Source: Verrucomicrobiota bacterium (lineage in GTDB: Bacteria; Verrucomicrobiota; Verrucomicrobiia; Limisphaerales; CANJXF01). Taken from it: DNA of 41,256 nucleotides. The notes beneath the pieces are model-generated. The model was not told the origin of the DNA, ran no database searches, and worked only from the letters and a program-made list of their open reading frames with translations. The translations under genes were made by a program, and so were the position numbers. The stretch is taken from the NCBI GenBank assembly GCA_038214755.1, contig JBBQRQ010000042.1:1-41256 (forward strand), read 5' to 3'. Position 1 is the stretch's first letter, and each line of letters begins with the position of its first letter. This document shows positions 15,639 to 39,323 of this stretch, piece after piece.

Positions 15639-16397
15639 ATGAAAAGTTTCAGTTCATTTCAACAACAACGGAAAGCTTTTACCCTCATTGAGCTTCTGGT
15701 CGTTATCGCGATCATTGCGATTTTAGCGGGATTACTTTTACCTGCTTTAGCAAAAGCAAAAGACAAGGCGAGCATGACTTTATGCCTGAATAATCTTAAA
15801 CAATTGAACTTAGCCATGGTTCTCTACACTTCGGACAATCGTGACAAAACTCCAACTGTGGACAGTGTCCCCCCTGTCCCCCCTCACGACATCTGGTGGT
15901 GGTACAAGGAATTGGATAAGTCTTACGCAGGCATCACGGGGCCGTCCACGAATACAGACCGGGTCTTCCAGTGTCCGAAAGATCGGGGTTGGCCATCTCG
16001 CGCAGCCGCAGGCAATTCTTACGACAAGCCTCATCATCAGAATCCAACCCTGGATTTTGGAAGTTACGTTTTCAATGGTGTCGGGGCCGTCAATGGCGTC
16101 GGGCAAAATCAAAACACCAATCATTTGCTGAATATTTCTTTGTCCACCGTCAAACATCCGGTGCGCACGGTCATGATGGCTGAGTGGCCCATCCATTGGA
16201 GCTATTCGTGGCACAAAAACAAACCGGGTGCGGGCAACACTGACATTGCATTCAAGGATGCTCTCGTCAGTGTCAGTTTCGTCGATGGACACGCTGCATT
16301 TATCAAAGTCTATTGGAACGCGTTTTTGGGAAATCCTTTTTCCTATTCTACTGCGCAAATTCCGCCAAGTTATGGGTATCAGTTTGCCCCGGACTGA
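15639..16397 (+). CDS. Prepilin-type N-terminal methylation domain protein, copy 2
   Basis: Paralog of 9276-10007 ([24 protein letters not shown]). ATG 15639 follows ggag and aligns with the copy 1 start. Confidence 0.9.
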
Positions 16398-16402
16398 TTC
16401 GC

Positions 16403-17264: not shown

Positions 17265-17324
17265 GTTGCGCGCCCAACGGAATTGCGGATGTGCTTAAAA
17301 GCGGGTGAGGCTGGATTTGGTTTC

Positions 17325-17451
17325 TTGGACTGCGGCGGCATGACGCCGCTTTTCCTGCACGTTCCGCGATGGAGCAAGTGCGCAAAATGAAGAACCTTTC
17401 CGGCTTTTCCACCGTGCCGCCAAAGCGGGGACGTGTCCCCCGCAGTCCAAA
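17325..17451. repeat. REP-like doublet (ttggactgcgg...ccgcagtccaa family)
   Basis: ttggactgcggcggcatgacgccgctttt ... aaagcggggacgtgtcccccgcagtccaa; related element at 37311-37463. Confidence 0.7.
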
Positions 17452-17517
17452 ATAACATCGGTTCCAACCTCACCCACTTTTAATCACACCACGGAATTGC
17501 CTCGGCGGAAATAAGGC

Positions 17518-17558: not shown

Positions 17559-17635
17559 CGCGGGGTGGAGCAGCCTGGTAGCTCGTCAGGCTCATAACCT
17601 GAAGGCCGTGGGTTCAAATCCCACCCCCGCAACCA
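17559..17635 (+). tRNA. tRNA-Met (CAT), initiator fMet type
   Basis: CGCGGGG acceptor stem with C1:A72 mismatch, anticodon arm tcagg-ctCATaa-cctga, GGTTCAAAT T-loop, encoded CCA; 77 nt. Confidence 0.95.
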
Positions 17636-18393: not shown

Positions 18394-20415
18394 ATGGAAT
18401 CCGAACGCAAAACTCTCGACGACCGCAACAAGATGACCGACCTCGAACGCCTGCGCCATTCCTGTGCGCACGTGCTCGCGACGGCGATTCTGAAACTCTG
18501 GCCCGACGCGCAATTCGCCGCCGGGCCGCCCGTTGAAAATGGTTTTTATTACGACGTGGAATTGTCGCACCGCATTTCGCCGGAAGATTTCGCGAAGATC
18601 GAAGCGGAGATGAAGGCGATCACAAAAGCCAATCAGCCTTTTGAAAAAGTTGTCGTCACGCGCGAACAGGCCTTGGCGGATGCGAAATCGGGAAAACTTG
18701 CCGCGCTCGGCGAACGCAGCACTCCGAGCAAATTCAAGTTGGACATTGTTGAGAATATTCCGGCGAACGAACCGATTTCTTATTTCAAGAATGGCGATTT
18801 CATCGATCTCTGCGCCGGGCCGCACGTCATGCGCACGGGCAACATCGGCGCGTTCAAGCTCACGCATGTCGCCAGTGCCTACTACAAAGGCGACGACAAA
18901 AATCCGCAGCTGCAACGCATTTACGGCACCGCGTTCAAAAACAAAACCGAGATGGACGCTTACTTCACGATGTTGGAAGAGGCGAAGAAACGCGACCACC
19001 GGAAAATCGGCACGGAGATGGGCTTGTTCGCCATCGACACGGAATTTGTCGGGCCCGGTCTGCCGCTCTGGTTGCCGAAAGGCACGGCAATTTTGGAGGA
19101 ACTGGAAAAGCTCGCGAAGGAAACGGAATTTCAGGCGGGTTATGTGCGCGTGAAGACGCCGCACATTGCGCGGGAGAAAATGTATAAAACGAGCGGCCAC
19201 CTGCCGTATTACGCCGAGTCGATGTTTCCAGCGATGCAGATGAAATTTGATCCTGAGGAAGAACGGCAGATAGTGAAGCTCGAAGCAATAATCGAGGAAA
19301 AATCCAAAGCGATACAGGCCTTTGAACGTATTTTCTCTACCATGAAAATGGAGGAGGCGGCCAAAGATCATCGCGATAAGCTAGATCAGTTTGAGCAGTA
19401 TAAGCGTGACTTGGCCGAGATCAGCGACAAGCGAGATGAAACCCTTAGTCACAATCGCTATTACCTCAAAGCCATGAACTGTCCGCATCACCACCGCATT
19501 TTTGCGGCGGAACCGCACAGTTATCGCGACCTGCCGTTGCGCCTGGCCGAATACGGCACCTGCTATCGCTACGAACAGTCGGGCGAGTTGTTCGGCCTCA
19601 TGCGCGTGCGCTCGCTCAACATGAACGACGCCCACATTTATTGCACCGAAGACCAGTTCGCGGAGGAGTTTCGCGCCGTCAACGACATGTATCTGAAATA
19701 TTTTAAAATCTTCGGATTGGAAAAATATCAGATGCGTTTCAGCACCTCCTCGCCCGAAGGTCTGGGCAAGAAATACGTCAACGAACCGGAGCTGTGGAAA
19801 AAAACCGAGGACATGGTGCGCAAAGTGTTGATCGATTCCGGCATCAACTTTGTGGAAGTCGCCAACGAAGCCGCGTTTTACGGCCCGAAAATCGACGTGC
19901 AGGTCTGGAGCGCCATCGGCCGCGAATTCACAATTGCGACCAACCAGGTGGATTTCGCCGTGCCCGCGAAGTTCGGCCTGAAATATCGCGACAAGGATAA
20001 TTCCGAGAAAACGCCGTTGTGCATTCATCGCGCGCCGCTCGGCACACACGAACGTTTCATCGGATTCCTGATCGAACATTACGCCGGCAATTTCCCGCTC
20101 TGGCTCGCGCCGGAACAGGTGCGCGTCCTGACGCTCAACGCCGACGACAATCTCGTGGCCTACGCCAAAGACATCGCCCAACAACTCCGCGCCGCCGAAG
20201 TCCGCGTGACCAGCGACCTTGGCCCCGAACCGATCAAAGCGAAAATCGCCGAAGCCGAACAAGCCAAAGTCCACACCATGCTCGTCATCGGTGGCCGCGA
20301 CGTGGAATCGGGTAACGTGAGCGTGCGTTTGCATGGGAAAGGGAATGTGGGGGCGAAGGCGAAGGGGGAAGTGGTGGCGGAGATTCTAGCATCGATTCGA
20401 AAACGACAGGATTAA
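18394..20415 (+). CDS. thrS: Threonine--tRNA ligase (no TGS domain; ~65-aa internal insert)
   Basis: [79 protein letters not shown] at 18394. Confidence 0.98.
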   Translation: MESERKTLDDRNKMTDLERLRHSCAHVLATAILKLWPDAQFAAGPPVENGFYYDVELSHRISPEDFAKIEAEMKAITKANQPFEKVVVTREQALADAKSGKLAALGERSTPSKFKLDIVENIPANEPISYFKNGDFIDLCAGPHVMRTGNIGAFKLTHVASAYYKGDDKNPQLQRIYGTAFKNKTEMDAYFTMLEEAKKRDHRKIGTEMGLFAIDTEFVGPGLPLWLPKGTAILEELEKLAKETEFQAGYVRVKTPHIAREKMYKTSGHLPYYAESMFPAMQMKFDPEEERQIVKLEAIIEEKSKAIQAFERIFSTMKMEEAAKDHRDKLDQFEQYKRDLAEISDKRDETLSHNRYYLKAMNCPHHHRIFAAEPHSYRDLPLRLAEYGTCYRYEQSGELFGLMRVRSLNMNDAHIYCTEDQFAEEFRAVNDMYLKYFKIFGLEKYQMRFSTSSPEGLGKKYVNEPELWKKTEDMVRKVLIDSGINFVEVANEAAFYGPKIDVQVWSAIGREFTIATNQVDFAVPAKFGLKYRDKDNSEKTPLCIHRAPLGTHERFIGFLIEHYAGNFPLWLAPEQVRVLTLNADDNLVAYAKDIAQQLRAAEVRVTSDLGPEPIKAKIAEAEQAKVHTMLVIGGRDVESGNVSVRLHGKGNVGAKAKGEVVAEILASIRKRQD

Positions 20416-20443
20416 TTCACAACTGGATTGAAAAATCGAAAGC

Positions 20444-21256
20444 ATGAAAAGAGAAACTTCCTTTACGCGAACACTCTTTCCCGCGCACGTAATACGCGAA
20501 GCATTCGAGACCCTTTTTCCGAAGGAGAGTGTTGAGAAAGGTATTCGGCATTTACTATCTCTTCAGGTAGGCAAAGACAAGTGGACGTACGATTCGTTCG
20601 AGCAGTTCTTAGCGGATTATCCAAGGCATACAGGTTACGTTTATGGCGATCTCCACGACGATAAGCACCAGTTGATCATCAGTGTCAGAACCCACGATAC
20701 CGGCATCCAAGTGAAAGCTTCGACGCATGGCCCTATTAACGCCACATTCTCAGTGTTCGAGCGCGCAGCCGATGCATGCAGACTACCTCCACCTCCTGAG
20801 CCACCCAAACCTGTAAAGCCCCCTCCCGTCGTTTTTGTCGGCCACGGGCGCAGTGCGCTTTGGCGCGCCCTCAAAGACCATCTCGCCGAAAAGCACGGTT
20901 ATCGCGTCGAAGCGTACGAAGTCGGCGCACGGGCTGGACATACGATCAGGGACATTCTGGCGGACATGCTTGGAAAATCTTCTTTCGCCTGTTTGGTTCT
21001 GACAGCAGAGGATGAAATGGCCGATGGAACGATGAGGTCTCGCCAAAATGTCATTCACGAAACGGGATTGTTCCAGGGACGTTTGGGTTTCAGTCGGGCG
21101 ATTGTGCTGCTTGAAGAGGGTGCAGAGGAGTTTTCCAACATCGAAGGCATACAGCAAATCCGATTCTCCAAGGGAAACATCAAGGAAACATTTGGCGAAG
21201 TACTCGCAACTCTAAGGCGTGAGTTTGGCCCAACATCTGGCGATGCTAAAGGCTAA
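20444..21256 (+). CDS. TIR-like nucleotide-binding domain protein (CAP12/Pycsar-type TIR) with an unknown N-terminal domain
   Basis: VFVGHGRS...SSFACLVLTAED...RSRQNVIHETGLFQGRLGFSRAIVLLE...FSNIEGI; Pro-rich linker. Confidence 0.85.
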   Translation: MKRETSFTRTLFPAHVIREAFETLFPKESVEKGIRHLLSLQVGKDKWTYDSFEQFLADYPRHTGYVYGDLHDDKHQLIISVRTHDTGIQVKASTHGPINATFSVFERAADACRLPPPPEPPKPVKPPPVVFVGHGRSALWRALKDHLAEKHGYRVEAYEVGARAGHTIRDILADMLGKSSFACLVLTAEDEMADGTMRSRQNVIHETGLFQGRLGFSRAIVLLEEGAEEFSNIEGIQQIRFSKGNIKETFGEVLATLRREFGPTSGDAKG

Positions 21257-21265
21257 CGGAATTTT

Positions 21266-21359
21266 CCGTTGCGCCTGGCCGAATACGGCACCTGCTATCG
21301 CTACGAACAATCGGGCGAGTTGTTCGGCCTCATGCGCGTCCGCTCGCTCAACATGAACG
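21266..21359 (+). pseudogene. thrS: thrS fragment 1 (copy of 19534-19627)
   Basis: 94 nt nearly identical to thrS, encoding [31 protein letters not shown]. Confidence 0.92.
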
Positions 21360-21407
21360 TTTGGCAAATCTCCTTTGCTTCAAATTGAAAGTGCGTATTT
21401 TATCACT

Positions 21408-21635
21408 ATGAAAACCGCCAGCGTTCAGCAACTGCCGCAGAAGTGGACCCAGATTTTGGAGTGGGTCGCCGCTGGCGAAGAAGTGGAACTCACGGCGCAA
21501 GAAAAGGTCGTCGCTCGAATCGTTCCAGCCAGCCAGCCTGATTTTCTGGCGCGCGCAAAAAAGATTTGGGGCGAACAACCGTCAGGCCAGCCGTTGAGTG
21601 AATTGATTTCTCAAGCGCGCGGAGGAGAGTCGTGA
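21408..21635 (+). CDS. Phd/YefM-family antitoxin (VapB role)
   Basis: MKTASVQQL...ILEWVAAGEEVELT...VVARIVP; overlaps the PIN toxin start. Confidence 0.85.
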   Translation: MKTASVQQLPQKWTQILEWVAAGEEVELTAQEKVVARIVPASQPDFLARAKKIWGEQPSGQPLSELISQARGGES

Positions 21636-22060
21636 CTTATCTGGACACCGGCTGCTTCGTCAAACTTTACTACCCGGAAGCCGACAGCGTGCAAGTCATC
21701 GCGCACGTTCAGGGCAAGTCTGTCTGTTACACGCCGCTGCACGAATTGGAGTTTGTGAATGCGCTTCAACTCAAAGTGTTCCTCAAAAATGCCACACCAC
21801 AACAAGTGATCGCCGCGCGCGGACTGGTCGAGGCAGATTTGAAATCAGGTGTGCTTGTGTCGGTGGGCGGTGATTGGCCGAATTTTTTTCGCGAGGCAGT
21901 AAAGCTGGCAGAGCAGCACACCGGAACAATCGGCTGCCGCTCGCTGGATATTCTTCATTGTGCCGCCGCCAAGGTTTTGACCGCGACGGAGTTCATCAGC
22001 ACCGACACCCGACAGAAAAAGCTGGCCGCAGCGATGGGTTTGAATCTGGTGACGATTTGA
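21632..22060 (+). CDS. vapC: VapC-family PIN-domain toxin
   Basis: YLDTGCFVKLY..E, LHELE, RSLDILH, FISTDTRQ acidic PIN residues. Confidence 0.88.
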   Translation: MTYLDTGCFVKLYYPEADSVQVIAHVQGKSVCYTPLHELEFVNALQLKVFLKNATPQQVIAARGLVEADLKSGVLVSVGGDWPNFFREAVKLAEQHTGTIGCRSLDILHCAAAKVLTATEFISTDTRQKKLAAAMGLNLVTI

Positions 22061-22092
22061 AGTTGCCAGTCAAAGTCAGAGAATTTTTATGA

Positions 22093-22418
22093 ATGAAAAC
22101 TGATTTGAATTTGATCGAAGAAGCCGTCAAAACCGGAACCGCCCCAGCGGAGATTGCCGACGCTTTCAACGAGTTGTCCTCGTTGCGCGAACAATTTAAA
22201 AAAATTCGGCGAGCCGGAAAGTTACTACCTCGAAGCCATGAACTGTCCGCATCACCACCGCATTTTTGCGGCGGAAGTCTTTGCAGACGGCCACAAGCAG
22301 TTATCGCGACTTGCCGTGGCGTCTGGCCGAAGTGTTTGCACACGGCCACAAGGCACCTGCTATCGCTACGAACAATCGGGCGAGTTGTTCGGCCTCATGT
22401 GCGTCCGCTCGCTTAACA
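22093..22418 (+). pseudogene. thrS: thrS fragment 2 with an alternative insert region and two 20-bp insertions
   Basis: 22223-22418 matches thrS 19459-19621 (YYLEAMNCPHHHRIFAAE...). It is preceded by a helical ORF that joins this frame if the A7 at 22198-22204 were A6. Confidence 0.85.
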
Positions 22419-22435
22419 AAACCAGTTCGCTGCCC

Positions 22436-22465
22436 TTGACGAACCTGTAGCTTAAAAGCTACACT
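22436..22465 (+). promoter_or_regulatory. TA promoter with palindromic operator
   Basis: TTGACG-N18-TACACT overlapped by the palindrome tgtagctt-aa-aagctaca (22446-22463). Confidence 0.7.
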
Positions 22466-22471
22466 TTCTCA

Positions 22472-22807
22472 GTGCTGATCACGCCCAAAGAAATCGAGGT
22501 CTTCCGCGCCAAAAACGGCGGAGTGCCTTTCGAGAATTGGTTGGATGATTTAAAGGATAAAAAGGCCGTAGCCCGCGTGCTGGCACGGCTGGCGCGGGTG
22601 CGTCAGGGCAATCTGGGCGATTGCAAATCGGTGGGCGAAGGCGTTTCCGAATTGCGGGTGGATTACGGGGCGGGCTACCGGGTTTATTTTGGACAGAAAG
22701 GCCGGACGTTGGTGGTGTTGCTCTGCGGAGGCGATAAGCGGACGCAGGATCGCGACATCCGTCTGGCGAAACAGTATTGGCACGAATTCAAAGAGGGCGA
22801 ATTATGA
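22472..22807 (+). CDS. RelE/HigB-like addiction module killer protein
   Basis: PFENWLDDLKD...GNLGDCKSVGEGVSELRVDYGAGYRVYFGQ...LLCGGDKRTQDRDI. Confidence 0.9.
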   Translation: MLITPKEIEVFRAKNGGVPFENWLDDLKDKKAVARVLARLARVRQGNLGDCKSVGEGVSELRVDYGAGYRVYFGQKGRTLVVLLCGGDKRTQDRDIRLAKQYWHEFKEGEL

Positions 22808-23088
22808 AAACCGTCAGTTACAAAAAAATTCTACGCGAGAAACTGGATGACCCTGAACAAGCGGCGGAATATCTCACCGCCTGCTACGAGGAAGGCCCGG
22901 AAGTTTTTCTGGTTGGCCTGCGCGATGTCGTCGAAGCGCAAGGGGGCGTGAGTCGCACGGCGGAATTGAGCAAACTGAATCGTGAAAGTTTGTATCGCCT
23001 TGTTTCACGCAATGGTAATCCGCGTTTATCGAGTCTTAATTCCGTGCTTTCCGCGCTTGGTTTGAAACTCACGTTCGAGGCGGCTTGA
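22804..23088 (+). CDS. HTH addiction module antidote (HigA-like)
   Basis: AAEYLTAC...GLRDVVEAQGGVSRTAELSKLNRESLYRLVSRNGNPRLSSL; toxin-first gene order. Confidence 0.9.
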   Translation: MKTVSYKKILREKLDDPEQAAEYLTACYEEGPEVFLVGLRDVVEAQGGVSRTAELSKLNRESLYRLVSRNGNPRLSSLNSVLSALGLKLTFEAA

Positions 23089-23536
23089 AAGTTGCGCCTT
23101 GAAATATCGCGACAAGGATAATTCCGAGAAAACGCCATTGTGCATTCATCGCGCGCCGGTCGGCACGCATGAACGTTTCATCGGTTTCCTGATTGAACAT
23201 TACGCCGGCAACTTCCCGCTCTGGCTCGCGCCCGAGCAAGTCCGCGTCCTGACGCTCAACGCCGACGCCAATCTCGTCGCCTACGCCAAAGACATCGCGC
23301 AACAACTTCGCGCCGCCGAAGTCCGCCTGACCAGCGACCTCGGCCCCGAACCGATCAAAGCGAAAATCGCGGAAGCTGAAACTGCGAAAGTCCACACGAT
23401 GCTCGTTATCGGCGGGCGTGATGTAGAAGCGGGCAACGTGAGCGTGCGTTTGCATGGAAAAGGGAATGTGGGCGCGAAACCGAAAGGGGAAGTGGTGGCG
23501 GAGATTTTGGGGGCGATTAAAGAACGAAAATCATGA
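23089..23536 (+). pseudogene. thrS: thrS fragment 3 (3' ~145 codons, frame intact to its own stop)
   Basis: Matches thrS from ~19970 (KYRDKDNSEKTPLCIHRA...). Ends in a different tail, ILGAIKERKS; the stop overlaps the next ATG. Confidence 0.92.
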
Positions 23537-24783
23537 GCAAGCAATCACGCCAACGAATGCGCGATGCTGCCGGACAACGCGGCTCTGGGAAACGCTCGCG
23601 CTGGGTGTTGGCAATCATTCTGGCCGGAATTGTGATTGGCGGTTTTGCAATTTGGAAAAAACGTCCATCAACAGCGAATGTTGCTGGAACTGATGGTCAC
23701 AATTCAGTCACCGCCAAATTTCCACCGACGAGTTTTGCCGAACTTTGCGCGCTCGAAACCAATGATCTCGAACGGTGTGACATTGCTTTGATGAACCTGC
23801 TCTGCGCGGAAGGACTGGTCGGTTCAGAACATCTCAACATTTCCAGTAACCTGACGCTGCTGGATAATTTCGCAAAATACGTGAAGTCCGAAACCGAGAG
23901 GCATTTGTATAAGTTTCGCGAACACCCTGATGAGTTCAACAATTCCGAAGGCTACTTCCGCATGATGATGATGACGACGGTGCTTCAGCAAGATTTGGGA
24001 GTGCGGTATAATCCAGAACGAATCCAATTGCCGTGGAATCCAATCGAATCGAACGAGCGATTTTTCGCAGACTCACGGGATATTTTTATTCACGGTTTGG
24101 CGCGCAAGAACGGCACTGGAACTTGTTCGTCCATGCCGGTGTTTTTCGTCGCTGTTGGTCGTCGGCTTGGTTATCCGCTGAAATTGGTGAGAGCCAAGTC
24201 GCATTTATTCGCTCGCTGGGACGAAGCGGGTCGGAGTTTTAATATCGAAGGAACATCCATCGGCTTGGTGAGCTATCCCGATAATCATTATCGGAATTGG
24301 CCAATGTCGTTTACGCCTGAGGAAGAGGAGGCAGAAAGTTATTTGAAATCGTTGACGCCAGTGCAGGAACTGACCGTATTCCTCTCCATTCGTGGCGCGT
24401 GTCTGCGAGCGCACACGAATTATTTGCATGCTCTTGGAGCATTTGCGCAGGCATTTTACAAGGAGCCGCAATCCGTCGGTTATCAAAAGCTTTTCGCGAA
24501 TGCGGAATACGAGGCGTATCACGCAGGCGTGTTGGACAAACGTGCCGCGCTCCAGTTTGCAATACATTCGTTGGAAATTCCGCCGGGACCGCGAGCCGCA
24601 GAATTTTCTGAGAGAAAAGCGACGCTTAACTTCAAAAACGAAAAGGGAATCGCGGCATCCGAAATTGAAAGAGAATTGGAAATTCTGCGCGCAGAAATAA
24701 GTTCTAGCCGCGAAAAAACTTATTTACAGAACGAACCGAATCCACTAAAAAGCCTCTTGTCGCCACAAAACTCAGTGCCATAG
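23533..24783 (+). CDS. Membrane-anchored transglutaminase-like (SirB1-related) protein
   Basis: N-terminal TM segment; GTCSSMPVFFVAVGRRLGYPLKLVRAKSHLFARWD gives a Cys...His pattern typical of the transglutaminase-like fold. Confidence 0.65.
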   Translation: MSKQSRQRMRDAAGQRGSGKRSRWVLAIILAGIVIGGFAIWKKRPSTANVAGTDGHNSVTAKFPPTSFAELCALETNDLERCDIALMNLLCAEGLVGSEHLNISSNLTLLDNFAKYVKSETERHLYKFREHPDEFNNSEGYFRMMMMTTVLQQDLGVRYNPERIQLPWNPIESNERFFADSRDIFIHGLARKNGTGTCSSMPVFFVAVGRRLGYPLKLVRAKSHLFARWDEAGRSFNIEGTSIGLVSYPDNHYRNWPMSFTPEEEEAESYLKSLTPVQELTVFLSIRGACLRAHTNYLHALGAFAQAFYKEPQSVGYQKLFANAEYEAYHAGVLDKRAALQFAIHSLEIPPGPRAAEFSERKATLNFKNEKGIAASEIERELEILRAEISSSREKTYLQNEPNPLKSLLSPQNSVP

Positions 24784-24796
24784 AAAAGGAGAAATT

Positions 24797-25393
24797 ATGA
24801 AACGAATATTCCTGCCTCTCATCGTAACAGCAGTTCTTTTCTCAATGACGTCCGCAAAGGCGTTTTACGATCCGTCCATTGGTCGCTGGGTGAATCGAGA
24901 TCCACTGGGTGAAGGCAGAGGTTCCAGCGCAATGATGGAAAATGTGATTGGCCCGTTCGAGTTATTTAACGGGGGCAATCTTTACCATTTTGTTTACAAT
25001 GATCCAGTGACGCAAGTTGATGTTTGGGGGCTAGATGTTTGGGTGGTGCAGCAGAATGGCGGTTTCGGTCATCAATGGGCGGTAGGCGACAATGGCAACG
25101 GAACATATTGGGATTCGGATAAAATGCCCGGAAAAGGCCCTCTTGCGCCGCTTAATTGCCCTCCACAAATTAGTTTTCACCCGGACTCTGGATTCGATCC
25201 CAAGAATCTTAATCCCGACTTCACGATTAAGCGGCATGTAACAACGAGTTCTTCGGTAGATAAAAAAGTTCGCGATGAAGCTGAAAAGCGAGCGCGGGAA
25301 AATAAAGGACGATATGATGCAGCCTGTAGCAATTGCCGAGATCATGCTAACGGTCTGGCTGATTACGCCGTAGGGGCCAAATTAGTGGATTAG
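24797..25393 (+). CDS. Signal-peptide-bearing RHS-repeat-associated core protein with a putative C-terminal toxin domain
   Basis: Signal peptide ...SAKA then FYDPSIGRWVNRDPLGE...GGNLYHFVYNDPVTQVDVWGL. The tail carries GHQW and Y...SNCR motifs. Confidence 0.8.
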   Translation: MKRIFLPLIVTAVLFSMTSAKAFYDPSIGRWVNRDPLGEGRGSSAMMENVIGPFELFNGGNLYHFVYNDPVTQVDVWGLDVWVVQQNGGFGHQWAVGDNGNGTYWDSDKMPGKGPLAPLNCPPQISFHPDSGFDPKNLNPDFTIKRHVTTSSSVDKKVRDEAEKRARENKGRYDAACSNCRDHANGLADYAVGAKLVD

Positions 25394-25410
25394 TAAAACC
25401 TTTCGTTTCG

Positions 25411-25797
25411 ATGCAATCAGAGGAGTCGAACGGAGTTGGGTCAGGATTTCCTGGTTGGATTTTGGTAGTTCTTGGGGTGTTAGTTGGGACTTACGCAATA
25501 ATTGGTATACTGACTCAACGTAGTTTACGCAGAGCGACCACAGCAGAGCTTCGATTGTTACTTACTCGTTGGGTTGAGGCGGGGAAACCCACGGAAACGC
25601 CTTTGAAAGCGTTTATGTCCGGGCGAGGTGCCGAGTTCGTAGTTTCCAATCGAAATATCACTCTAGGAGACAGCAATTTTGTAACTCAGTTCGCCACGGT
25701 TCGCCCAAAATCAGGAGAGGAAGCAACTGTTTTCATCACAACGAATGGTATTTGCATCTGGTGGCCTAAAGTTGGAAAACCCAAAATCGTGAATTAA
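25411..25797 (+). CDS. Putative immunity protein 1 (N-terminal TM)
   Basis: Directly downstream of the RHS-core gene; paralog of the next ORF (WVEAGKP, FMSGR, QFATVRPKS, FITTNGICIW). Confidence 0.6.
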   Translation: MQSEESNGVGSGFPGWILVVLGVLVGTYAIIGILTQRSLRRATTAELRLLLTRWVEAGKPTETPLKAFMSGRGAEFVVSNRNITLGDSNFVTQFATVRPKSGEEATVFITTNGICIWWPKVGKPKIVN

Positions 25798-25881
25798 ACT
25801 TGAGGTCAAAAATTTCTCACTGCCGGACTGCAATCGTCCTCGCGCTGGCGGCGGCGCAAAGAATAAAAGTTAGCGGATGGA

Positions 25882-26247
25882 ATGAAGAAGGCTCTTATCG
25901 TTAGCGGCGGGGTAATTTTCTGCGTTGTCGTTGCTTATTTAATCCTGAGTTTTTTTGTTACCCGAAGTCTCCATCGAGCGGATTGTGCTGAAATTTCCTC
26001 GTATTATAAAGGGTGGATCCAAGCAGGAAAACCGGGTGGTGAAGAACTTATCAAATTCATGCAAGGAAGACGGCGGGATTTGATTGTCACAAACCGCATT
26101 TTTCTCATTCAAGGCACGAATTATTTTTCCCAATTTGCAGTGACAGAACCCAAGTCTTTGCGTGATGGAACGCTGTTCATTACTACCAACGGCATTTTGA
26201 TTTGGCAGCCGTTAAATCACGATCCTGAAATTGTTCAATTCAATTGA
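25882..26247 (+). CDS. Putative immunity protein 2 (paralog)
   Basis: WIQAGKP, FMQGR, QFAVTEPKS, FITTNGILIW. Confidence 0.6.
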   Translation: MKKALIVSGGVIFCVVVAYLILSFFVTRSLHRADCAEISSYYKGWIQAGKPGGEELIKFMQGRRRDLIVTNRIFLIQGTNYFSQFAVTEPKSLRDGTLFITTNGILIWQPLNHDPEIVQFN

Positions 26248-26253
26248 CCCCAA

Positions 26254-26614
26254 CTGTGGAAAAAAACCGAGGACATGGTGCGCAAAGTGTTGATCGATTC
26301 CGGCATCAACTTTGTGGAAGTCGCCAACGAAGCCGCATTTTACGGCCCGAAAATCGACGTGCAGGTCTGGAGCGCCATCGGTCGCGAATTCACGATTGCG
26401 ACCAACCAGGTGGATTTCGCCGTGCCCGCGAAGTTCGGCCTGAAATATCGCGACAAAGATAATTCCGAGAAAACGCCGCGGTGCATTTATCTCGCAGCGC
26501 TCGGCACGCATCCCGCAGGCGCGGGATTTCATCGGAGATAAAGTCAGTCCGCCTCCGCACGTCGTCGGCTACACATCCGTAACTTCCGCTCTGGCTCGCG
26601 CCCGAACAAGTCCG
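26254..26614 (+). pseudogene. thrS: thrS fragment 4 (~19792-20123) interrupted by a REP half
   Basis: LWKKTEDMVRKVLIDSGINF...KYRDKDNSEKTP, then an insertion at 26536-26573, then aacttccgctctggctcgcgcccgaacaagtccg. Confidence 0.9.
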
Positions 26615-26713
26615 GCTCCAGATACCATGAGAAATTCGGCCGTAAAAACTTTAAGCAGAACCGAGAAACCTCATTTGAATTTCGAGCAGAGATAAGCCAA
26701 TCTCCGCCCAGAA

Positions 26714-28285
26714 GTGGCTGAAACAATTTTAACGGAAAAGACAAAACCGAAACGCAACATACGTTGGTGGCCGGGTTTCAGTATTTTGCTGGTAGCAGTT
26801 TTGGCGATAGTCTTGGTGCGCGCGCAAACGGACTGGCCCTTTCAAAGACGAAATCTCACTTCCGCCCGAATCATCGCGGCGACCGTGATTGCTCTGCTCA
26901 TCTGGTGGACTTTTTTATCACGCGCGTCGAATCGATTGCGTTTGGGCATAACGTTTGGGTTTGTCGGAGCGTTAATAGTTGCCGCTCTTCTGTTTCGAGT
27001 GCGGGGAGTAACCGGCGATCTGCTGCCCATACTTGAATATCGCTGGACGAAACAAAGCGCCGACATAATCCCACCCAAAACATTCGCCAACGCTTCCGCT
27101 GCGCAACTGACTCGCAGCGTAACAAATGATTTTCCACAATTTCGCGGGCCGAATCGCGATGGGGTTTTGCCGGGTCCCCGTCTTGAAACCAACTGGATGG
27201 CGCATCCGCCACAAATTATTTGGAGGCAAAAAGTCGGCGGGGCGTGGTCGGGATTTTCCGTCGTCGGAGACATTTGTCTTACGCAAGAGCAGCAAAGCGA
27301 GAATGAATGCGTTGTGGCCCGTGACCTGACGAGCGGCAAGGAACTTTGGCGGCATGCCGACAAAGCGCATTACAACACGACTATTGCGGGTGAAGGACCG
27401 CGAGCGACGCCGACGGTGGTGAGTAATCGTGTTTTCACTTTCGGCGCTACAGGAATTCTGAACTGCTTCGATCTTTCGTCAGGAAAAATGCTTTGGAGTC
27501 GCGACTTGATAAAGCTCAGCGGTGGAAAAATGCCCGACTGGGGCGTGGCAGGTTCGCCGCTGTGCGTGGATGGACTCGTCATCGTTCATGGCGGCAAAGG
27601 AGCCAAAAATTCACTTCACGCGTTTCGCGCGGAAGACGGGCAGCCGGTCTGGTCAGGCGGCCTAATGAATTCGGACTATGCGTCGCCATCGTTCGCGATC
27701 CTTGCGGGCGCGCCACAAATTCTCGCCTTCAACAGCGGCGCAATTTCCGGTCACGATCCAAAGACGGGCGCAACGCTGTGGCAACTTCCGTGGGGAAGTG
27801 GCAATGTCGCCTGCGCATCGCCGGTGGTGGTAAGCGATAACCAGGTTTTATTTTCCAGCGCTTACGGCTTCGGCGCGGAGTTAGTGGAAATTTCGCGGAC
27901 CAATTCAGAATTCGCCGCGACAGTTTTGTGGAAATCGATCCGCATGAAAGCAAAGTTTTCCCACATGTTCGCTCGCGGCGGATTTCTTTATGGATTGGAT
28001 GACGGAATTTTCGCGTGCGTTGATTTGAGGGATGGATCGCAACGATGGAAGGAAGGCCGCTACGGACACGGCCAGGGATTGGCCGTCGGCGACCTCTATC
28101 TTTTGATGGCGGAATCGGGCGAATTGATCCTTTTGTGGCCGACGCCTGATGCATCTAACGAACTTGCGCGCTTTCGAATATTTGATTCCAAAACGTGGAA
28201 TCCCATTGCGCTCGCGGGCGACTTGCTTTTGGTTCGCAATGATCGTGAAGCGGCCTGTCTGCGACTATCTCCGAGTTCTAAATAA
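26714..28285 (+). CDS. PQQ-binding-like beta-propeller (BamB-like) membrane protein
   Basis: Three N-terminal TM segments; DFPQFRGPNRDG, repeated D..(S/T)G...W motifs, GEGPRATP. Confidence 0.88.
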   Translation: MAETILTEKTKPKRNIRWWPGFSILLVAVLAIVLVRAQTDWPFQRRNLTSARIIAATVIALLIWWTFLSRASNRLRLGITFGFVGALIVAALLFRVRGVTGDLLPILEYRWTKQSADIIPPKTFANASAAQLTRSVTNDFPQFRGPNRDGVLPGPRLETNWMAHPPQIIWRQKVGGAWSGFSVVGDICLTQEQQSENECVVARDLTSGKELWRHADKAHYNTTIAGEGPRATPTVVSNRVFTFGATGILNCFDLSSGKMLWSRDLIKLSGGKMPDWGVAGSPLCVDGLVIVHGGKGAKNSLHAFRAEDGQPVWSGGLMNSDYASPSFAILAGAPQILAFNSGAISGHDPKTGATLWQLPWGSGNVACASPVVVSDNQVLFSSAYGFGAELVEISRTNSEFAATVLWKSIRMKAKFSHMFARGGFLYGLDDGIFACVDLRDGSQRWKEGRYGHGQGLAVGDLYLLMAESGELILLWPTPDASNELARFRIFDSKTWNPIALAGDLLLVRNDREAACLRLSPSSK

Positions 28286-28297
28286 ATGAATTCTTCG

Positions 28298-28630
28298 TTA
28301 CCGCCAGTAACTTCCCGCTCTGACTCGCGCCCGAACAAATCTGCGTCCTGACGCTCCACGCCGACGACAATCTCGTCGCCTACGCCAAAGACATCGCCCA
28401 ACAACTCCGTGCCGCCGAAGTCCGCCAGCAATCTCGGCCCCGAACCGATCAAAGCGAAAATCGCGGACGCTGAATCAGCCAAAGTGCATACGATGCTCGT
28501 CATCGGTGGGCGCGATGTGGAAGCGGGCAACGTGAGCGTGCGTTTGCATGGGAAAGGGAATGTGGGAGCGAAATCCAAGGAAGAAGTTATATCAAACATT
28601 CTAAAAACGATCAAAGAGCGAACGGCCTAA
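28298..28630 (+). pseudogene. thrS: thrS fragment 5 (degenerate 3' end)
   Basis: Matches thrS ~20078-end with TGG>TGA and a small deletion; tail GAKSKEEVISNILKTIKERTA. Confidence 0.9.
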
Positions 28631-28955
28631 CCGGGAGCGATCGTTTCATTTCCAAACCGAGCAGCGCGACGGAAACGGTAGAGCTGGGCAGACCGCAACG
28701 GCGAATCACTTCGTCGATGCTCGACTCCTGTTCGCTCAAGGCGTCGTAAATTTTCTGCTCGTTTTCCGAAAGTGTGAGCATGGGCAAAACTCCGGTCTCG
28801 CTCGCGCCCGCTGGACGGTTGCTCGTTGGAAATAAATATTCGAACTCGCTTAGAATATCTTCCGCGCCTTCGCAAAGCTTCGCGCCTTTCTTGATCAACT
28901 CGTGACAATTTTTGCCGCGCGGAAAATCAATTCTTCCGGGCACAGAAAACTGCCC
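28631..28955 (-). pseudogene. dprA: DprA (Smf) C-terminal fragment
   Basis: FSVPGRID.PRGKNCHELIKKGAKLCEGAEDILSE plus winged-helix SIDEVIRRCGLPSSTVSVALLGLEMKR; the N-terminal two-thirds are absent. Confidence 0.75.
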
Positions 28956-28999
28956 GCCATCCGCGAACCGAGCGAGCGTCACTCGCCTGGTCGTTTCGG

Positions 29000-30808
29000 C
29001 TAGGAATGCGCCGCCAGCCAGTAACGAATCTGCGTGGCTTGCGGATGTTGCGGCTCGGCTTCCAAAACTTTTAAATAATGTTCGCGCGCGTTGGAAATTT
29101 GATTGAGCCGTTGTGCGCAAAGATTGCCCAGGAGCAGATGCGCCCGCGTCTCGTTGGGATTTTGCGCGAGCAATTTTTGCAACTCATTTTCGGCGTCGTG
29201 GAAATATCCGGCTTCCTGCAAAGTGAAGGCGAAATTGTATCGGGCGTTGACCGACTCGGGCAAAATGGCGAGGGCTTGTTCGTAGGCGGCCAGCGCGGCG
29301 GATAACTCTCTCACTTCGTGCGCCGCCAACGCCATGTTGTAATGGGCTTCGTAGAAAGACGGGTCCAATTTAACGGCCTGGCGATAGGCGGCCAATGCCT
29401 CAACCATGCGACGATCTTTTTGGGCTTGCATCCCGTCGGAAAAAAATGGCTCCGCTTCCTCTCTCTTTCCCTCCGGCGGTTTGCTGGGCATTCGATATTT
29501 ATAACGGGGAAAAGTCGGCGTAGTTCTCGTCGTCGCAACATTGCGCTGTTTTTTTTCCGTCGGAGTTCGCTCGCTCACCTCGGCACTCTTTTCGATGCTG
29601 GGCCGGGTTGCGGGCAATTCTGTGATGGACGGCGGGGTCTGTTTTGGCTTTCGCTTGAACCAGTTCGCCGGATTTATTTTAGTTAGAGTGCCCGCTCCTT
29701 TTTCCGGCAGAGGCGCGCGATTGAAGGTGCGTGGCGGCGGCTCACTGGAAGTTGAAAGCGGCGCCGGGTTTTCAATCGCTGGAACATCCGGCGCGGACTT
29801 GAGCGGCGGTTCGTCGGGCAACTTCGTCACTTCCACGTGCGCTTCGCGTCGCGGAGAAGGTTGCGCTTTCGGGGAAGAAATAATTGGCGGTGCTTTCGAC
29901 GTTGTTTTCGAAAAATTGGTTTCCGTTTTTGTTGGAGCAGCGTTGGAGGGACTCGCACCTTTGCTGGCCAAAGTGGCCGGAGGTTTCGCGGTAGGGGGCG
30001 CGCTGGCTACGACCACGGAGGGGTTCAAGTCGTTCTCCAGTTGCCGCACCACTTTTTGAACCTGCGCGACCTCGGGAGCTTGTTTGGCCACGCTCAGGAA
30101 TTTCCGGTAATTGAGCAGAGCCAAATGGCGCTCATTCAAATGTTGATGATAAACCACCGCGAGATTGAGCGCGGCCGGCGCGTAGTCGGGCTGTTGTTGC
30201 AGCGCGCTGGTAAAACTGGGAATGGCGTCGCGAGGACGGCCGCGTTGCATCTGCAACAAACCAATGGCATTGAGCGTTTCGGCGGAGGGGCGCAACTTTT
30301 GCGCGGAATCAAAATTCTTTTTTGCCGCATCAAGCTGGCGATTTTTTTCGACTCCGGAGAGAGAGGAGGCCAATTGCAATTGCGCCAGTCCGAGCTTCAT
30401 CCAGCCGTCCGCATTGTTCGGCTCCAATTGGGTGAACGTCGTCAGTTCGGAAATGGCGGCGGGAAAAAAATTCTGCTCCAGATACAATGCGCCCAAATTG
30501 TAACGCGCTGCGGTGAGATTTCGATCCAGCGCCAACGCTTGTTGATACGCTTGCGCCGCTTTCTTTTGATCGCCCGAATACTGATAGCCGAGACCGAGAT
30601 AGTTCCAGGCTTTGGCGCTGTGCGGATACGCTTTGGCCGCCTCTTCAAACTTCTGCACCGCTTCGGAATATTTTCCTTCCTTGAGCAACCGCTCGCCTTT
30701 GACCAAAGCGCGCGCGCCTGCTGGAGCGCAGCCAATCCCGCTCGCTACCACCATCGTCGCCAGAGAAAAAATCAGAAAAATTTGCGCCAGCTTTTTGGTG
30801 GTCAGCAT
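29000..30808 (-). CDS. Tetratricopeptide-repeat protein (putative lipoprotein) with Pro-rich linker
   Basis: Multiple TPR motifs (AWNYLGLGY, ARYNLGALY, AHYNMALA); start probably ATG 30808. Confidence 0.88.
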   Translation of the reverse strand: MLTTKKLAQIFLIFSLATMVVASGIGCAPAGARALVKGERLLKEGKYSEAVQKFEEAAKAYPHSAKAWNYLGLGYQYSGDQKKAAQAYQQALALDRNLTAARYNLGALYLEQNFFPAAISELTTFTQLEPNNADGWMKLGLAQLQLASSLSGVEKNRQLDAAKKNFDSAQKLRPSAETLNAIGLLQMQRGRPRDAIPSFTSALQQQPDYAPAALNLAVVYHQHLNERHLALLNYRKFLSVAKQAPEVAQVQKVVRQLENDLNPSVVVASAPPTAKPPATLASKGASPSNAAPTKTETNFSKTTSKAPPIISSPKAQPSPRREAHVEVTKLPDEPPLKSAPDVPAIENPAPLSTSSEPPPRTFNRAPLPEKGAGTLTKINPANWFKRKPKQTPPSITELPATRPSIEKSAEVSERTPTEKKQRNVATTRTTPTFPRYKYRMPSKPPEGKREEAEPFFSDGMQAQKDRRMVEALAAYRQAVKLDPSFYEAHYNMALAAHEVRELSAALAAYEQALAILPESVNARYNFAFTLQEAGYFHDAENELQKLLAQNPNETRAHLLLGNLCAQRLNQISNAREHYLKVLEAEPQHPQATQIRYWLAAHS

Positions 30809-30838
30809 CGCCGAGGGTGGTAACATCCGCCGCTCGGC

Positions 30839-31897
30839 GTGTCAAGAAACGCCCCGGGTTGCGCAGTGCTCAAACTACTTTTTCCATTGATAACGAGTGC
30901 CCTGCTCTTGCGCCAGGCAGGAGCAGCGGAAACTATTTTTTCGCAAAAAAATATTTCTTCGCGCGCGCGCGTTGTCGTGGCCGGCGATCCGAAGGCCACC
31001 GTCGCTTTTCAACCGCAGCCGGAAAAAGTTCGCGCTCTGGTCAATCGCGGGCTGTTGCGGTTCGCGGGAAAAACCAATCTTGCTCTCGCCTGGAAAACTT
31101 TTGTTTCCACCAACGACGTCGTGGGAATCAAAGTTTACTCCGCGCCCGGCGCCAATAGCGGCACGCGTCCGAGCGTGGTGGCGGCTGTGGTGGAAGGTTT
31201 GCTGGCAGCGGGAGTTCCGGCAAAGAAAATAATTATCTGGGACAAGGAGTTGGTTGATTTGCGTCTGTCCGGTTTTGTGGACCTCGCCGAGAATTATCAC
31301 GTGCGAGTCGCGGCCAGCGCCGCCAGCGGTTACGACGAAAAAGTTTTTTACGAAAGTCCGCTCATCGGGAATTTGGTCTGGGGCGATGTGGAGTTTGGCA
31401 AAAAAGGCGAAGGCATCGGTCGAAAATCTTTCGTCACAAAATTACTCACCAAAGAAATTACAAAAATTATCAGCGTCGTTCCCCTGCTCAATCACAACGT
31501 CGCCGGGACCGCCGGACATCTTTGCAGCGTGGGACTCGGCGGCGTCGATAACACTCAACGTTTCGAGCAACCCGAACGTTTGGCGACGGCGTTGCCGGAA
31601 CTTTATGCCCTGCCCAGTTTGAGCGATAAAGTGGCGCTGACCATCACCGACGCTTTGCTTTGCCAATATCAGGGTGAGCAACGCAGCCTGCTGCACTACT
31701 CCGCTCCGATGAATGAAATCTGGTTCAGCAAAGACCCCGTCGCCCTAGACGTTTTGGCGATTGGCGAACTCAATCGCCAACGTGAAGTTGCCAAAATCGC
31801 GCCAGTAAAATCTTCCATGGAAATTTACGAAAACGCCTCGCTGCTCGAACTCGGGGTGAGCGATTCAAAAAATATCCAGATCGAAATAGCGCCCTGA
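30839..31897 (+). CDS. DUF362 domain-containing protein
   Basis: FVSTNDVVGIKV, TRPSVVAAVVEGLLAAGVP...IIIWD, IISVVPLLNH, SKDPVALD; start may be GTG 30866. Confidence 0.75.
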   Translation: MSRNAPGCAVLKLLFPLITSALLLRQAGAAETIFSQKNISSRARVVVAGDPKATVAFQPQPEKVRALVNRGLLRFAGKTNLALAWKTFVSTNDVVGIKVYSAPGANSGTRPSVVAAVVEGLLAAGVPAKKIIIWDKELVDLRLSGFVDLAENYHVRVAASAASGYDEKVFYESPLIGNLVWGDVEFGKKGEGIGRKSFVTKLLTKEITKIISVVPLLNHNVAGTAGHLCSVGLGGVDNTQRFEQPERLATALPELYALPSLSDKVALTITDALLCQYQGEQRSLLHYSAPMNEIWFSKDPVALDVLAIGELNRQREVAKIAPVKSSMEIYENASLLELGVSDSKNIQIEIAP

Positions 31898-32022
31898 TTT
31901 TAGAATCTTTCCGACGCATGACGAACGGCGTTCTTTGATTGCCACTCAGCGTCCTCCAAGACTCCGGCGCAGAAACAATTGCCTTGTTTCGACGCATTAT
32001 GGTTCTTTATCTCCTTCGAGTC

Positions 32023-37897: not shown

Positions 37898-37901
37898 GAG
37901 A

Positions 37902-38385: not shown

Positions 38386-39316
38386 TCACGCCCGACGCTG
38401 CTTTATCGCCGCCAAAATTTCCGCCACCACTTCCCCCTTCGCCTTCGCCCCCACATTCCCTTTTCCATGCAAACACACGCTTACGTTACCAGCTTCAACA
38501 TCGCGTCCGCTGATGACGAGCATCGTGTGCACTGTCGCTGATTCAGCGTTCGCAATTTTCGCTTTGATCGGTTCGGGGCCGAGGTCGCTCGTCACGCGGA
38601 CTTCGGCGGCGCGGAGTTGTTGGGCGATGTCTTTGGCGTAGGCGATGAGATTATCGTCGGCGTTGAGCGTGAGGACGCGGACTTGTTCGGGCGCGAGCCA
38701 GAGCGGGAAGTTGCCGGCGTGTAGCCGACGACGTGAGGAGGCGGACTGACTTTATCTTCCGATGAAACGTTCGTGCGTGCCGAGCGGCGCGTGATGAATG
38801 CACAACGGCGTTTGGGCGGAGTTATCCTTGTCGCGATATTTCAGGCCGAACTTCGCGGGCACAGCGAAATCCACCTGGTTGGTCGCAATCGTGAATTCGC
38901 GGCCAATCGCGCTCCAGACCTGCACGTCGATCTTCGGGCCGTAAAACGCGGCTTCGTTCGGCACCTCGACGAAATTGATGCCGGAAGCGATCAACACTTT
39001 GCGCACCATGTCCTCGGTTTTTTTCCACAACTCCGCTTCGTTGACGTATTTCTTGCCCAGACCTTCGGGCGAGGAAGTGCTGAAGCGCATCTGATATTTT
39101 TCCAATCCGAAGATTTTGAAATATTTCAGATACATGTCGTTGACGGCGCGAAACTCTTCCGCGAACTGGTCTTCGGTGCAATAAATGTGGGCGTCGTTCA
39201 TGTTGAGCGAGCGGACGCGCATGAGGCCGAACAACTCGCCCGATTGTTCGTAGCGATAGCAGGTGCCGTATTCGGCTAGGCGCAACGGCAGGTCGCGATA
39301 ACTGTGCGGTTCCGCC
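38386..39316 (-). pseudogene. thrS: thrS fragment 6 (3' half, from thrS 19506) split by a REP half at 38720-38757
   Basis: [17 protein letters not shown]...HERFIG, an insertion, then YAGNFPLWLAPEQV...ILAAIKQRRA; no 5' half. Confidence 0.93.
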
Positions 39317-39323
39317 TCACACG

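Follow-up and report, generated by a model that had tools for sequence, protein, structure and literature searches.

Background

We analysed a complete 41,256-base contig (the window; C42) of a 175-contig Verrucomicrobiota genome that resembles a metagenome-assembled genome (MAG). On it, the intact aminoacyl-tRNA synthetase gene thrS is followed by a series of small accessory genes, here called cargo, that are separated by 5'-truncated pieces of thrS itself, here called relics. An initial annotation made from the letters alone had noticed this array, and we confirm that observation. Our preferred reading, to which we give a probability of about 0.58, is serial displacement of the thrS 3' end by recombination anchored in thrS homology, with no dedicated enzyme. 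We regard the array as the most extreme local product of a general mode of insertion, anchored in homology and with precedents, rather than as a dedicated integron-like device.

One precedent is insertion with long target duplication, reportedly described by Nobusato et al. in 2000. In the accessible part of a study from 2010, such insertions have no mobility gene and are flanked by long direct target repeats of 46-420 bp, often over the 3' end of a gene; the cases are restriction-modification systems, mostly in naturally competent species, and the authors do not settle on a mechanism (Furuta, Abe and Kobayashi 2010, PMC2853133). The thrS cassettes are similar in that they lack mobility genes, carry defence-type cargo and are flanked by direct repeats of more than 30 bp of a sequence that is single-copy at the empty site. 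They differ in that as many as seven pieces stack up at a single essential gene, with many kinds of cargo, whereas the accessible text on long target duplication concerns single insertions with repeats that are mostly more than 90% identical. The thrS repeats are 75-98% identical, with a bias towards synonymous change, and thus fall short of near-identity. Because the thrS copies are different alleles, the "duplication" was imported rather than made on the spot.

C-terminal displacement in Rhs and contact-dependent inhibition (CDI) loci, reportedly described by Jackson et al. in 2009, provides a second precedent. For type VI secretion system (T6SS) effector-immunity modules of Vibrio cholerae, the accessible part of one report describes a conserved upstream anchor, an old module displaced downstream, orphan genes and 3' remnants, and no integrase; its authors propose homology-facilitated illegitimate recombination and themselves draw a comparison with integrons (Kirchberger et al. 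2017, PMC5361080). Here thrS takes the place of the anchor, with displaced ends and cassettes in series, allelic relics and, in one relative (G005), a foreign 3' end. In the T6SS and Rhs cases, anchor and cargo belong to one toxin/immunity system, whereas here a housekeeping aminoacyl-tRNA synthetase gene acts as anchor, its cargo has no relation to it and the remnant is the end of that essential gene.

Like integron cassettes, the thrS cargo forms serial, tightly packed, small and mostly promoterless units that are rich in toxin-antitoxin and defence genes and lie downstream of a fixed point; unlike integrons, the locus has no IntI, attI or attC, and its repeats are segments of the thrS coding sequence that begin at variable points. 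Islands and prophages in gene 3' ends, such as e14 and phage 21 in icd and ICESt1 and the CIMEs at fda, are generally known to keep the gene intact with a substitute end, to leave the old end behind as a pseudogene piece and to accrete in tandem, as the thrS array does. They are also known for an integrase and a short, fixed att core, and the thrS array has neither. Docking of the Tn7 or CRISPR-associated transposon (CAST) kind differs as well, since no transposase family is present in the window and copies of the thrS end delimit all units. The Vibrio Aux3 element, which lies next to thrS, was considered and set aside: according to the accessible part of its description it is a usual integrase-type island whose att site is intergenic, and it has nothing to do with the present array (PMC7721734). 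The view that the array is not a described system was too strong in light of the first two precedents (PMC2853133, PMC5361080); no description of stacked housekeeping-gene relics was found in the open-access literature searched.

Layout of the thrS array

Relics were located by tblastn and blastn searches of the window with its own thrS, and their boundaries were then refined. In what follows, G000 is the genome of the window, G001 and so on are other genomes compared, L numbers are individual loci and C numbers are contigs; positions within thrS are given in nucleotides (nt) or amino acids (aa). Behind the intact thrS, five co-oriented cargo units are separated by five 5'-truncated thrS pieces (r1-r5; 20416-28630, all on the + strand), and two further, inverted pieces that the initial annotation did not list (r6 and r7) lie within 37430-39319. 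The array and the features that adjoin it, including open reading frames (ORFs), are as follows.

18394..20415, + strand: live, fused thrS (Pfam tRNA_SAD, tRNA-synt_2b, HGTP_anticodon)
20444..21256, + strand: cargo 1, TIR-domain protein of the CAP12/Pycsar/CBASS effector type (Pfam PF10137, E 5e-23; PADLOC PycTIR, 1.9e-13)
21266..21359, + strand: r1, thrS nt 1240-1333, 97.9% nt identity, 94 nt
21375..22060, + strand: cargo 2, vapBC-like pair of a Phd/YefM antitoxin and a PIN toxin (Pfam)
22093..22418, + strand: r2, degenerate leader plus aa 389-442 of thrS
22472..23088, + strand: cargo 3, higBA-like pair, Gp49/HigB-like and HI1420 antidote (Pfam)
23089..23536, + strand: r3, thrS nt 1675 to stop (aa 559-706), 89%, tblastn E 1.7e-82, frame open
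23533..26247, + strand: cargo 4, four ORFs (TIGR03696, Transglut_core2, translations)
26254..26622, + strand: r4, thrS nt 1498-1837, 95.7%, first segment 26254-26510
26714..28285, + strand: cargo 5, PQQ/BamB-like beta-propeller (Pfam PQQ_2, 1e-26)
28302..28630, + strand: r5, thrS nt 1788 to about the end, 87%, one frameshift and one in-frame stop
28617..28949, - strand: dprA 3'-end relic, aa 252-365 of 368, 88.6% aa identity
37430..37580, - strand: r7, strongly diverged thrS 3' piece, about aa 651-703, 48% aa identity
37574..38354, - strand: cargo between r6 and r7, DUF6036 nucleotidyltransferase of 150 aa (PF19502, 1.3e-8) and a 107-aa ORF with no family match
38392..39319, - strand: r6, thrS aa 404-705, 90%, one TAA stop

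The thrS ORF is open from 18295, with the likely ATG at 18394, and this is the only full thrS in the genome. At aa 340-389, the point at which the gene is split in relatives, its product has an insert of ~50 aa that resembles a coiled coil. The relics overlap one another in thrS coordinates: r3, r5 and r6 extend to the end of thrS and all span nt 1788-2078. Together with ratios of non-synonymous to synonymous substitution rates (dN/dS) of 0.10-0.19, this overlap bears out the proposal that the pieces are independent copies and not one shattered gene. The r2 match to thrS covers 22223-22418 (nt 1165-1327, 77%), with the leader ahead of it inside an ORF at 22093-22416; the ends of r1 (nt 1333) and r2 (nt 1327) lie within 6 nt of each other in thrS coordinates.

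Packing is tight. Cargo 1 starts 28 nt past the thrS stop, and the pieces follow the preceding cargo stop at distances of 9 (r1), 0 (r3), 6 (r4) and 16 (r5) nt, much as the initial annotation had described. It had placed piece starts at 21266, 23089 and 26254, which are exact, and at 28298, which is 4 nt off. Four of the five cassettes in 20416-28630 are flanked by overlapping thrS segments. The overlap is at least 94 nt around the TIR gene, at least 160 nt around the RHS module and ~50 nt around the PQQ gene, which sits between the end of r4 at nt 1837 and the start of r5 at nt 1788; around vapBC it is ~88 nt of thrS, plus any leader kept upstream of r1 in G004. The exception is higBA, which stands in place of thrS nt 1328-1674, a substitution with no duplication or overlap.

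Family matches uphold the labels first given to the cargo (TIR, vapBC, higBA-like, RHS, PQQ) and their common orientation in 20416-28630; the transglutaminase label has only a sub-threshold match. It concerns the first ORF of cargo 4 (23533-24783), a 416-aa membrane-anchored protein in which Transglut_core2 is weak (E 0.047, below the cut-off). The second ORF (24797-25393) encodes a secreted protein of 198 aa that passes the NCBIfam TIGR03696 RHS-associated core model (33 bits against a cut-off of 32.5) and consists of an RHS-core tip followed by a C-terminal toxin-like domain. ORFs 3 and 4 encode two small paralogous membrane proteins, which are candidate immunity proteins. Promoter-like sites (8 against 6.4 in shuffled sequence) and terminator-like sites (16 against 19.2) are at shuffle level and are uninformative on read-through from thrS.

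The dprA relic and r5 stand tail to tail, and the live dprA is on another contig (C5:82367-83473); dprA lies beside thrS in none of ~120 other thrS neighbourhoods. A single inversion of 28631-39372 was considered for the inverted part (r6, r7 and the dprA relic). It would yield a continuous array, but would place r5 directly before r6 with no cargo between them and would leave the dprA relic unaccounted for.

Support for the assembly

A read search found the locus in a single run, from a sediment metagenome, and in no RNA run. This run, available as separately assembled Logan contigs, contains 94% of the sampled words; it may be the source sample and is thus not independent. Its contigs span every cargo/relic junction and break only inside thrS pieces. 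Contig depth is 26.5 for the upstream flank, 18.9 for thrS, 28.1 for TIR, 24.1 for vapBC, 17.8 for higBA, 23.2 for the RHS unit, 20.4 for PQQ and 21.2 downstream (overall range 17.8-28.1x). Flank and cassettes are thus equal in depth, whereas strain alternatives would each receive only a share, so a serial order is the simpler reading. Junctions also recur in other species: r1 with vapBC at 90% over 737 nt in G004, vapBC with the leader that follows it at 87% over 1,085 nt in G006, and the r2-higBA-r3 block at 84% and 87% over ~1.2 kb in G003 and G007, respectively.

These data bear on the possibility, raised at the outset as what would undo the array, that strain variants with different genes behind thrS were joined in series through shared thrS k-mers. 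Such an artefact would be in keeping with a fragmented, MAG-like assembly, with the many relatives' contigs that end inside thrS, with Logan contigs that end inside each relic and with the shortness of r1, whose 94 nt are 98-99% identical to two other copies. We nevertheless consider it highly improbable, as cassette depth approximates flank depth, all cargo/relic junctions are bridged, the relics differ from one another by 4-25%, and the r1-vapBC and r2-higBA-r3 junctions are present in assemblies of other species.

Relics as displaced alleles

Compared with live thrS, dN/dS is 0.18 for r2, 0.10 for r3, 0.19 for r4, 0.14 for r5 and 0.11 for r6; r1 shows two synonymous and no non-synonymous changes. 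A copy that decays in place beside a selected gene should show a much higher dN/dS. Since the relics differ from the live gene mainly at synonymous sites, the copies diverged for the most part as functioning genes of separate lineages, and the substitution pattern marks the thrS pieces as displaced functional alleles rather than decayed local duplicates. Decay is slight, with stops or frameshifts only in r5 (one of each) and r6 (one stop).

The relics are also mosaics. r1 and r6 represent one allele (98.9% identity), and r4 and r6 have an indel block in common. r6 is ~98.5% identical to live thrS over nt 1209-1530 and ~85% beyond, which is the footprint of a crossover; r4 is ~98% identical to it up to nt 1700 and then diverges. 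In r2, the last 67 nt are 97% identical to r1 and the remainder is ~70% identical to live thrS. In array order from r1 to r7, identity to the live gene is 98, 77, 89, 96, 87, 90 and 75%. Identity therefore does not fall with distance from thrS, and array position is not a clock. The starts of the pieces, at nt 1165, 1209, 1240, 1498, 1675, 1788 and ~1952, are spread over ~800 nt.

A different origin for the same pieces would be local segmental duplication of the thrS end followed by decay, with cargo inserted between the copies by unrelated events. The near-identity of r4 and r6 to the live gene over 200-320 nt (~98%) and of r1 to r6 would fit, but those stretches end abruptly, in the manner of gene conversion tracts. 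Divergence reaches 25%, the dN/dS values lie far below what is expected of a pair with one selected and one neutral member, and trees place a foreign 3' end on the thrS of G005, as set out below. We judge local duplication very unlikely.

Horizontal movement of thrS 3' ends

In a tree of the 5' part of thrS (nt 120-930), G005 falls inside its own genus (100/100). In a tree of the last ~350 nt, it groups with G013, G014, G017, G033 and the relic of G024 (96/98), outside the family clade (100/100); these five genomes belong to other families and are not neighbours in the 5' tree. Among ends of the G005 type, similarity stops at the stop codon, with unrelated DNA beyond. These trees show G005 thrS to be a chimera of a native 5' part and a foreign 3' end. 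As the four relics of G005 are of the same foreign type, the whole block of end and array may have moved.

A nearly uniform thrS 3'-end allele (branch lengths 0.02-0.07) was observed in six families; some of the genomes have it at the live gene, others in a relic (L040:2225-2569 in G005, and L043, L045, L046, L047 and L029).

The initial annotation proposed iterative capture at thrS that pushes older alleles downstream. The replacement of a resident 3' end by a foreign one in G005 agrees with this proposal, whereas its reading of array order as a simple chronology fails: blocks are shared with four congeners, r1 and r2 are not 3' ends, and higBA is a substitution without duplication. As to the suggested comparison of a fragment tree with position, identity is not ordered by position, and the tree of 3' ends does not separate the G000 relics within the family clade.

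thrS relics in relatives

Redundant thrS pieces, meaning pieces that overlap in thrS coordinates, are present in 15/41 genomes of the order (G000, G002, G003, G005, G007, G008, G009, G012, G013, G014, G017, G024, G031, G033 and G034). Profile searches were cluttered by paralogous class II synthetases, so counts were made by eye from the coordinates in the search table. Without the unpublished genome G009, which also enters the split-gene list and the vapB matches, the count is 14/40. In family f1, 7/9 scored relatives have redundant pieces (8/10 with G000), and the 26/41 genomes with a single thrS and no relic represent empty sites. In the same genomes, aspS occurs as single full genes with no clear redundant piece and at most one ambiguous contig-end overlap (G023). 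A paralogous class II synthetase has small downstream pieces in two or three genomes, and the end of ilvD has extra pieces in G000, G034 and possibly three further genomes. No extra thrS C-terminal piece was found in any of 300 genomes of the phylum outside the order, where short relics are harder to detect, as identity to the query is just ~45%; one of the genomes outside the order (G186) has two full thrS genes. Relics lie within 10 kb downstream at 7/80 named Verrucomicrobiota thrS loci. thrS is a lineage-wide hot spot.

Relic starts in relatives are spread over aa 383-673, and G008 has a 5'-end relic upstream of thrS. The cargo of relatives is diverse and often on the opposite strand, including an AEP-TOTE helicase, TfoX, DUF4143 ATPases, a Y1 transposase-like ORF, HYR proteins and a C5 methylase. 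The content behind thrS thus differs across relatives, a check that had been suggested, and vapBC and higBA are the only cargo of the window that recurs in another of the thrS neighbourhoods examined; cargo 1, the TIR gene, was in none. vapBC is common to G004, G006 and G009 (blastn 87-90%; tblastn) and the r2-higBA-r3 block to G003 and G007 (blastn 84-87%, ~1.2 kb), such that four congeners have blocks of r1-vapBC-r2-higBA-r3 in common with the window.

The same layout at other genes of the genome

Local repeats in G000 are mostly direct (114 against 3 inverted at 150-1000 nt; 83 against 4 at 1-3 kb), and many of them are ordinary paralogues or shared tail domains. Under strict criteria there are nine loci of the 3' type, thrS among them, and five of the 5' type. 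The 268 local direct pairs gave 44 candidates, of which 17 further loci were chosen by hand. At 15 of these 17, the repeat runs from an internal point of the host gene to within 0-9 nt of its stop, at 84-97% identity; dN/dS is at most 0.32 at 14 of the 15, with 0.97 in a tkt-like case. The two not counted are gcvP, for which no valid alignment was obtained, and a glycosyltransferase gene, in which the repeat ends 90 nt short of the stop. Hosts include ilvD, thiC, a molybdopterin oxidoreductase gene, a gyrB-like gene and a sodium:solute symporter gene, and the cargo includes a DNA methylase, PIN, DUF4258 and SocA/Panacea, often on the opposite strand. A scan of other genes for similar relic arrays had been suggested; the layout of gene, cargo and relic at 15/17 other genes, along with the opposite-strand cargo there and in relatives, contradicts the idea of a platform specific to thrS.

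Search for a recombinase, an att site or attC

No recombinase or transposase family was found among the 47 ORFs of the window in a Pfam scan. The genome has five tyrosine recombinase (PF00589) matches (C17, C73, C31, C146 and C135, none on C42), one serine recombinase/resolvase match and 17 Y1-transposase (IS200/RAYT-like) matches, all off C42. Comparison of r1-r7 revealed no shared motif at the piece starts, and no microhomology was seen at the five junctions read, as judged from this genome's side of the join. A repeat search of 20400-28700 found no attC-like structure at cassette borders, just long-range, short inverted matches, and the only border repeats are the thrS pieces. Among 137 ORFs of 17 relatives' thrS loci there was no integrase or resolvase (Pfam), and one ORF containing Y1_Tnp was present in the G005 locus. 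The original impression that no recombinase is in view thus holds, with no fixed att core either.

A site-specific recombinase encoded elsewhere could in principle have laid down tandem islets that lack their own integrase, that is, cis-mobilizable elements that accrete at an att site in thrS, each with a replacement thrS end. Relics that run from an internal point to the stop resemble the attR sites left by islands in gene 3' ends, five tyrosine recombinase matches are available in the genome, and the r1 and r2 ends coincide to within 6 nt. One site-specific enzyme, on the other hand, cannot target the 15 or more unrelated genes that bear like scars, and relic starts are scattered over ~800 nt here and over aa 383-673 in relatives without a common core. 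With 5'-type relics and opposite-strand cargo also in existence, and no integrase on the contig or in the 17 relatives' loci, we regard this origin as unlikely.

A dedicated capture system that docks at the thrS coding sequence, an "integron without attC" in which a nuclease perhaps cuts thrS and drives cassette homing, would account for the strength and lineage restriction of the hot spot (15/41 genomes of the order, almost none for aspS, 0/300 elsewhere in the phylum). It would also suit the tight, co-oriented packing, with cargo that starts 28 nt after thrS stops or overlaps them, the thrS 3' allele common to several families and the small nuclease genes beside some targets (PDDEXK_3 in G012 and G013; HNH upstream of ilvD). 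Against it stand the mixed cargo orientation in relatives, the genome-wide scars, the lack of any candidate enzyme conserved beside the arrays, the absence of a homing endonuclease gene from the cassettes of the window and the lack of a repeated border signal apart from thrS, which together make such a system improbable in our estimation.

The nuclease genes are stand-alone genes next to hosts that bear relics. PDDEXK_3 lies directly upstream of thrS at L043:3496-3918 (G013) and L044:9643-10041 (G012), and HNH directly upstream of ilvD at L059:7846-8262 (G000, C26).

Naturally split thrS

In G001, G004 and G007, thrS consists of two ORFs, cut in the loop at aa 340/389 inside the catalytic domain, with 3-5 kb of cargo between them; in a wider set of loci, the cargo between the halves is variable and measures 1.3-5 kb (L039:9213-16272 in G001, and L041, L054, L055, L050, L045, L094, L106, L113, L120, L136, L088 and L090). 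G001 is 97% complete and has no thrS besides the split one. A conserved tail, helix-like, closes the N-half, and the C-half opens with a leader, also conserved, that stops just short of the YYLKAMNCPHHH motif; tail and leader are conserved in G001, G004, G006, G007, G009, G014 and 7-11/80 named loci. The thrS of the window is the fused form, with its 50-aa insert at the split spot.

The split form identifies r1 and r2: they derive from the beginning of a C-terminal half gene of the split type and are not 3' ends. r1 is the 5'-cut remnant of the piece (leader plus aa 389-448) found ahead of vapBC in G004. At one named locus, the gene that usually lies behind the thrS stop lies instead behind the N-half stop, which fits recombination among thrS pieces reshuffling the locus. 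No report of a split thrS was found in the literature searched, and the split gene bears, as a topic in its own right, on the tolerance of class II synthetases to being fragmented.

Proposed mechanism

Under serial displacement, incoming DNA from a related lineage would carry the distal part of thrS together with the gene that lies behind it in the donor, and would pair with resident thrS through homology. A second join would form further downstream inside resident thrS, at a point X, either illegitimately (homology-facilitated illegitimate recombination) or by homologous recombination through a relic already present behind the donor cargo. The resident stretch between the joins would be replaced by the donor end and donor neighbour, an "ends-out" replacement. 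The product would consist of the resident 5' part with the donor 3' end, the donor cargo, a resident relic from X to the stop, and the old resident neighbour. Repeats of the process at the live gene or at any relic would stack cassettes, and recombination among the copies would delete, convert or invert parts of the stack. A donor relic behind the cargo would serve as a portable second homology arm. Cargo between a thrS end and a relic has two arms aimed at a conserved essential gene, which may be why ends and arrays spread between families. Because a homology-anchored process is symmetric, it also predicts 5'-end relics, as seen in G008 and at five loci of this genome.

Serial displacement explains why the relics are alleles with scattered starts, why genes are chimeric or mosaic, why 5'-type relics exist, why no enzyme or site is found and why scars occur across the genome. 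We infer the recombination pathway, entry by transformation and any benefit to the cell. ComEC, DprA and a ComEA-like gene are present in the genome; they are permissive only, because the same families also occur in control genomes not known for competence.

Several points weigh against this mechanism. It does not itself explain why thrS is hit far more than aspS, nor why the hot spot is confined to one order. The right-hand junctions, 0-16 nt past cargo stops, are tidier than random illegitimate joins and would need later trimming or selection. Natural transformation is an assumption for this lineage, and homology-facilitated illegitimate recombination is orders of magnitude rarer than ordinary recombination, according to the accessible part of PMC5361080. 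Between species, three cassette blocks have diverged about as far as thrS itself, which means that some of the array is inherited and not recently captured. With the G000 relics not separated within the family clade, a native relic beside a foreign live end is only a supposition for this genome. Finally, the contigs used as read evidence may come from the source sample itself and are not independent.

A bolder extension, which we offer only tentatively, is that relic arrays form a recombinase-free cassette system that rides on homologous recombination. Cargo would be excised as a circle or copied as linear DNA, would cross between families and would re-integrate in a way that regenerates thrS, while recombination among relics would shuffle which cassette lies behind the expressed gene. 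The same process would have made a working two-piece ThrRS, with the split site as a second cargo slot.

If displacement of this kind is real, small genes for defence and toxin-antitoxin systems need nothing beyond the cell's own recombination to enter and accumulate behind essential genes, and the leftover gene ends would be both a record of past events and a handle for the next. It would explain "integrase-less" accessory genes inside conserved neighbourhoods, and the relic of a neighbour's end would be a simple marker of recent acquisitions in metagenome genomes. Even a universal marker gene such as thrS may then be a mosaic of lineages.

Other features of the window

A tRNA-Met (CAT) gene lies ~760 nt upstream of thrS.

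17559..17635, + strand: tRNA-Met (CAT) (Rfam tRNA, 65 bits; ARAGORN)

No island boundary was found there, and the gene is given as context only. Dispersed short repeats of three or four families (~120, 120 and 205 nt), each with ~45 or more copies in the genome at 75-97% identity, occur at 1025-1148, 7651-7774 and 17286-17490, and also at 6429-6533; these sites are intergenic in the NADH dehydrogenase (nuo) operon and upstream of tRNA-Met and thrS, and no link with the thrS array was seen. The nuo operon itself (1-9177, - strand) is broken up by unrelated small genes, namely DUF4288 (3869-4282), an Rv0078B-like antitoxin-type ORF (5454-5720) and a prepilin-type N_methyl/DUF1559 ORF (6543-7589), and self-BLAST of the window detected no nuo relics. 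A 1.4-kb direct repeat with 78.6% identity (9276-10638 and 15639-17034) comprises two prepilin-type N_methyl genes around a laminin-G/Ig protein of 1279 aa and is probably a pair of paralogous genes rather than a relic.

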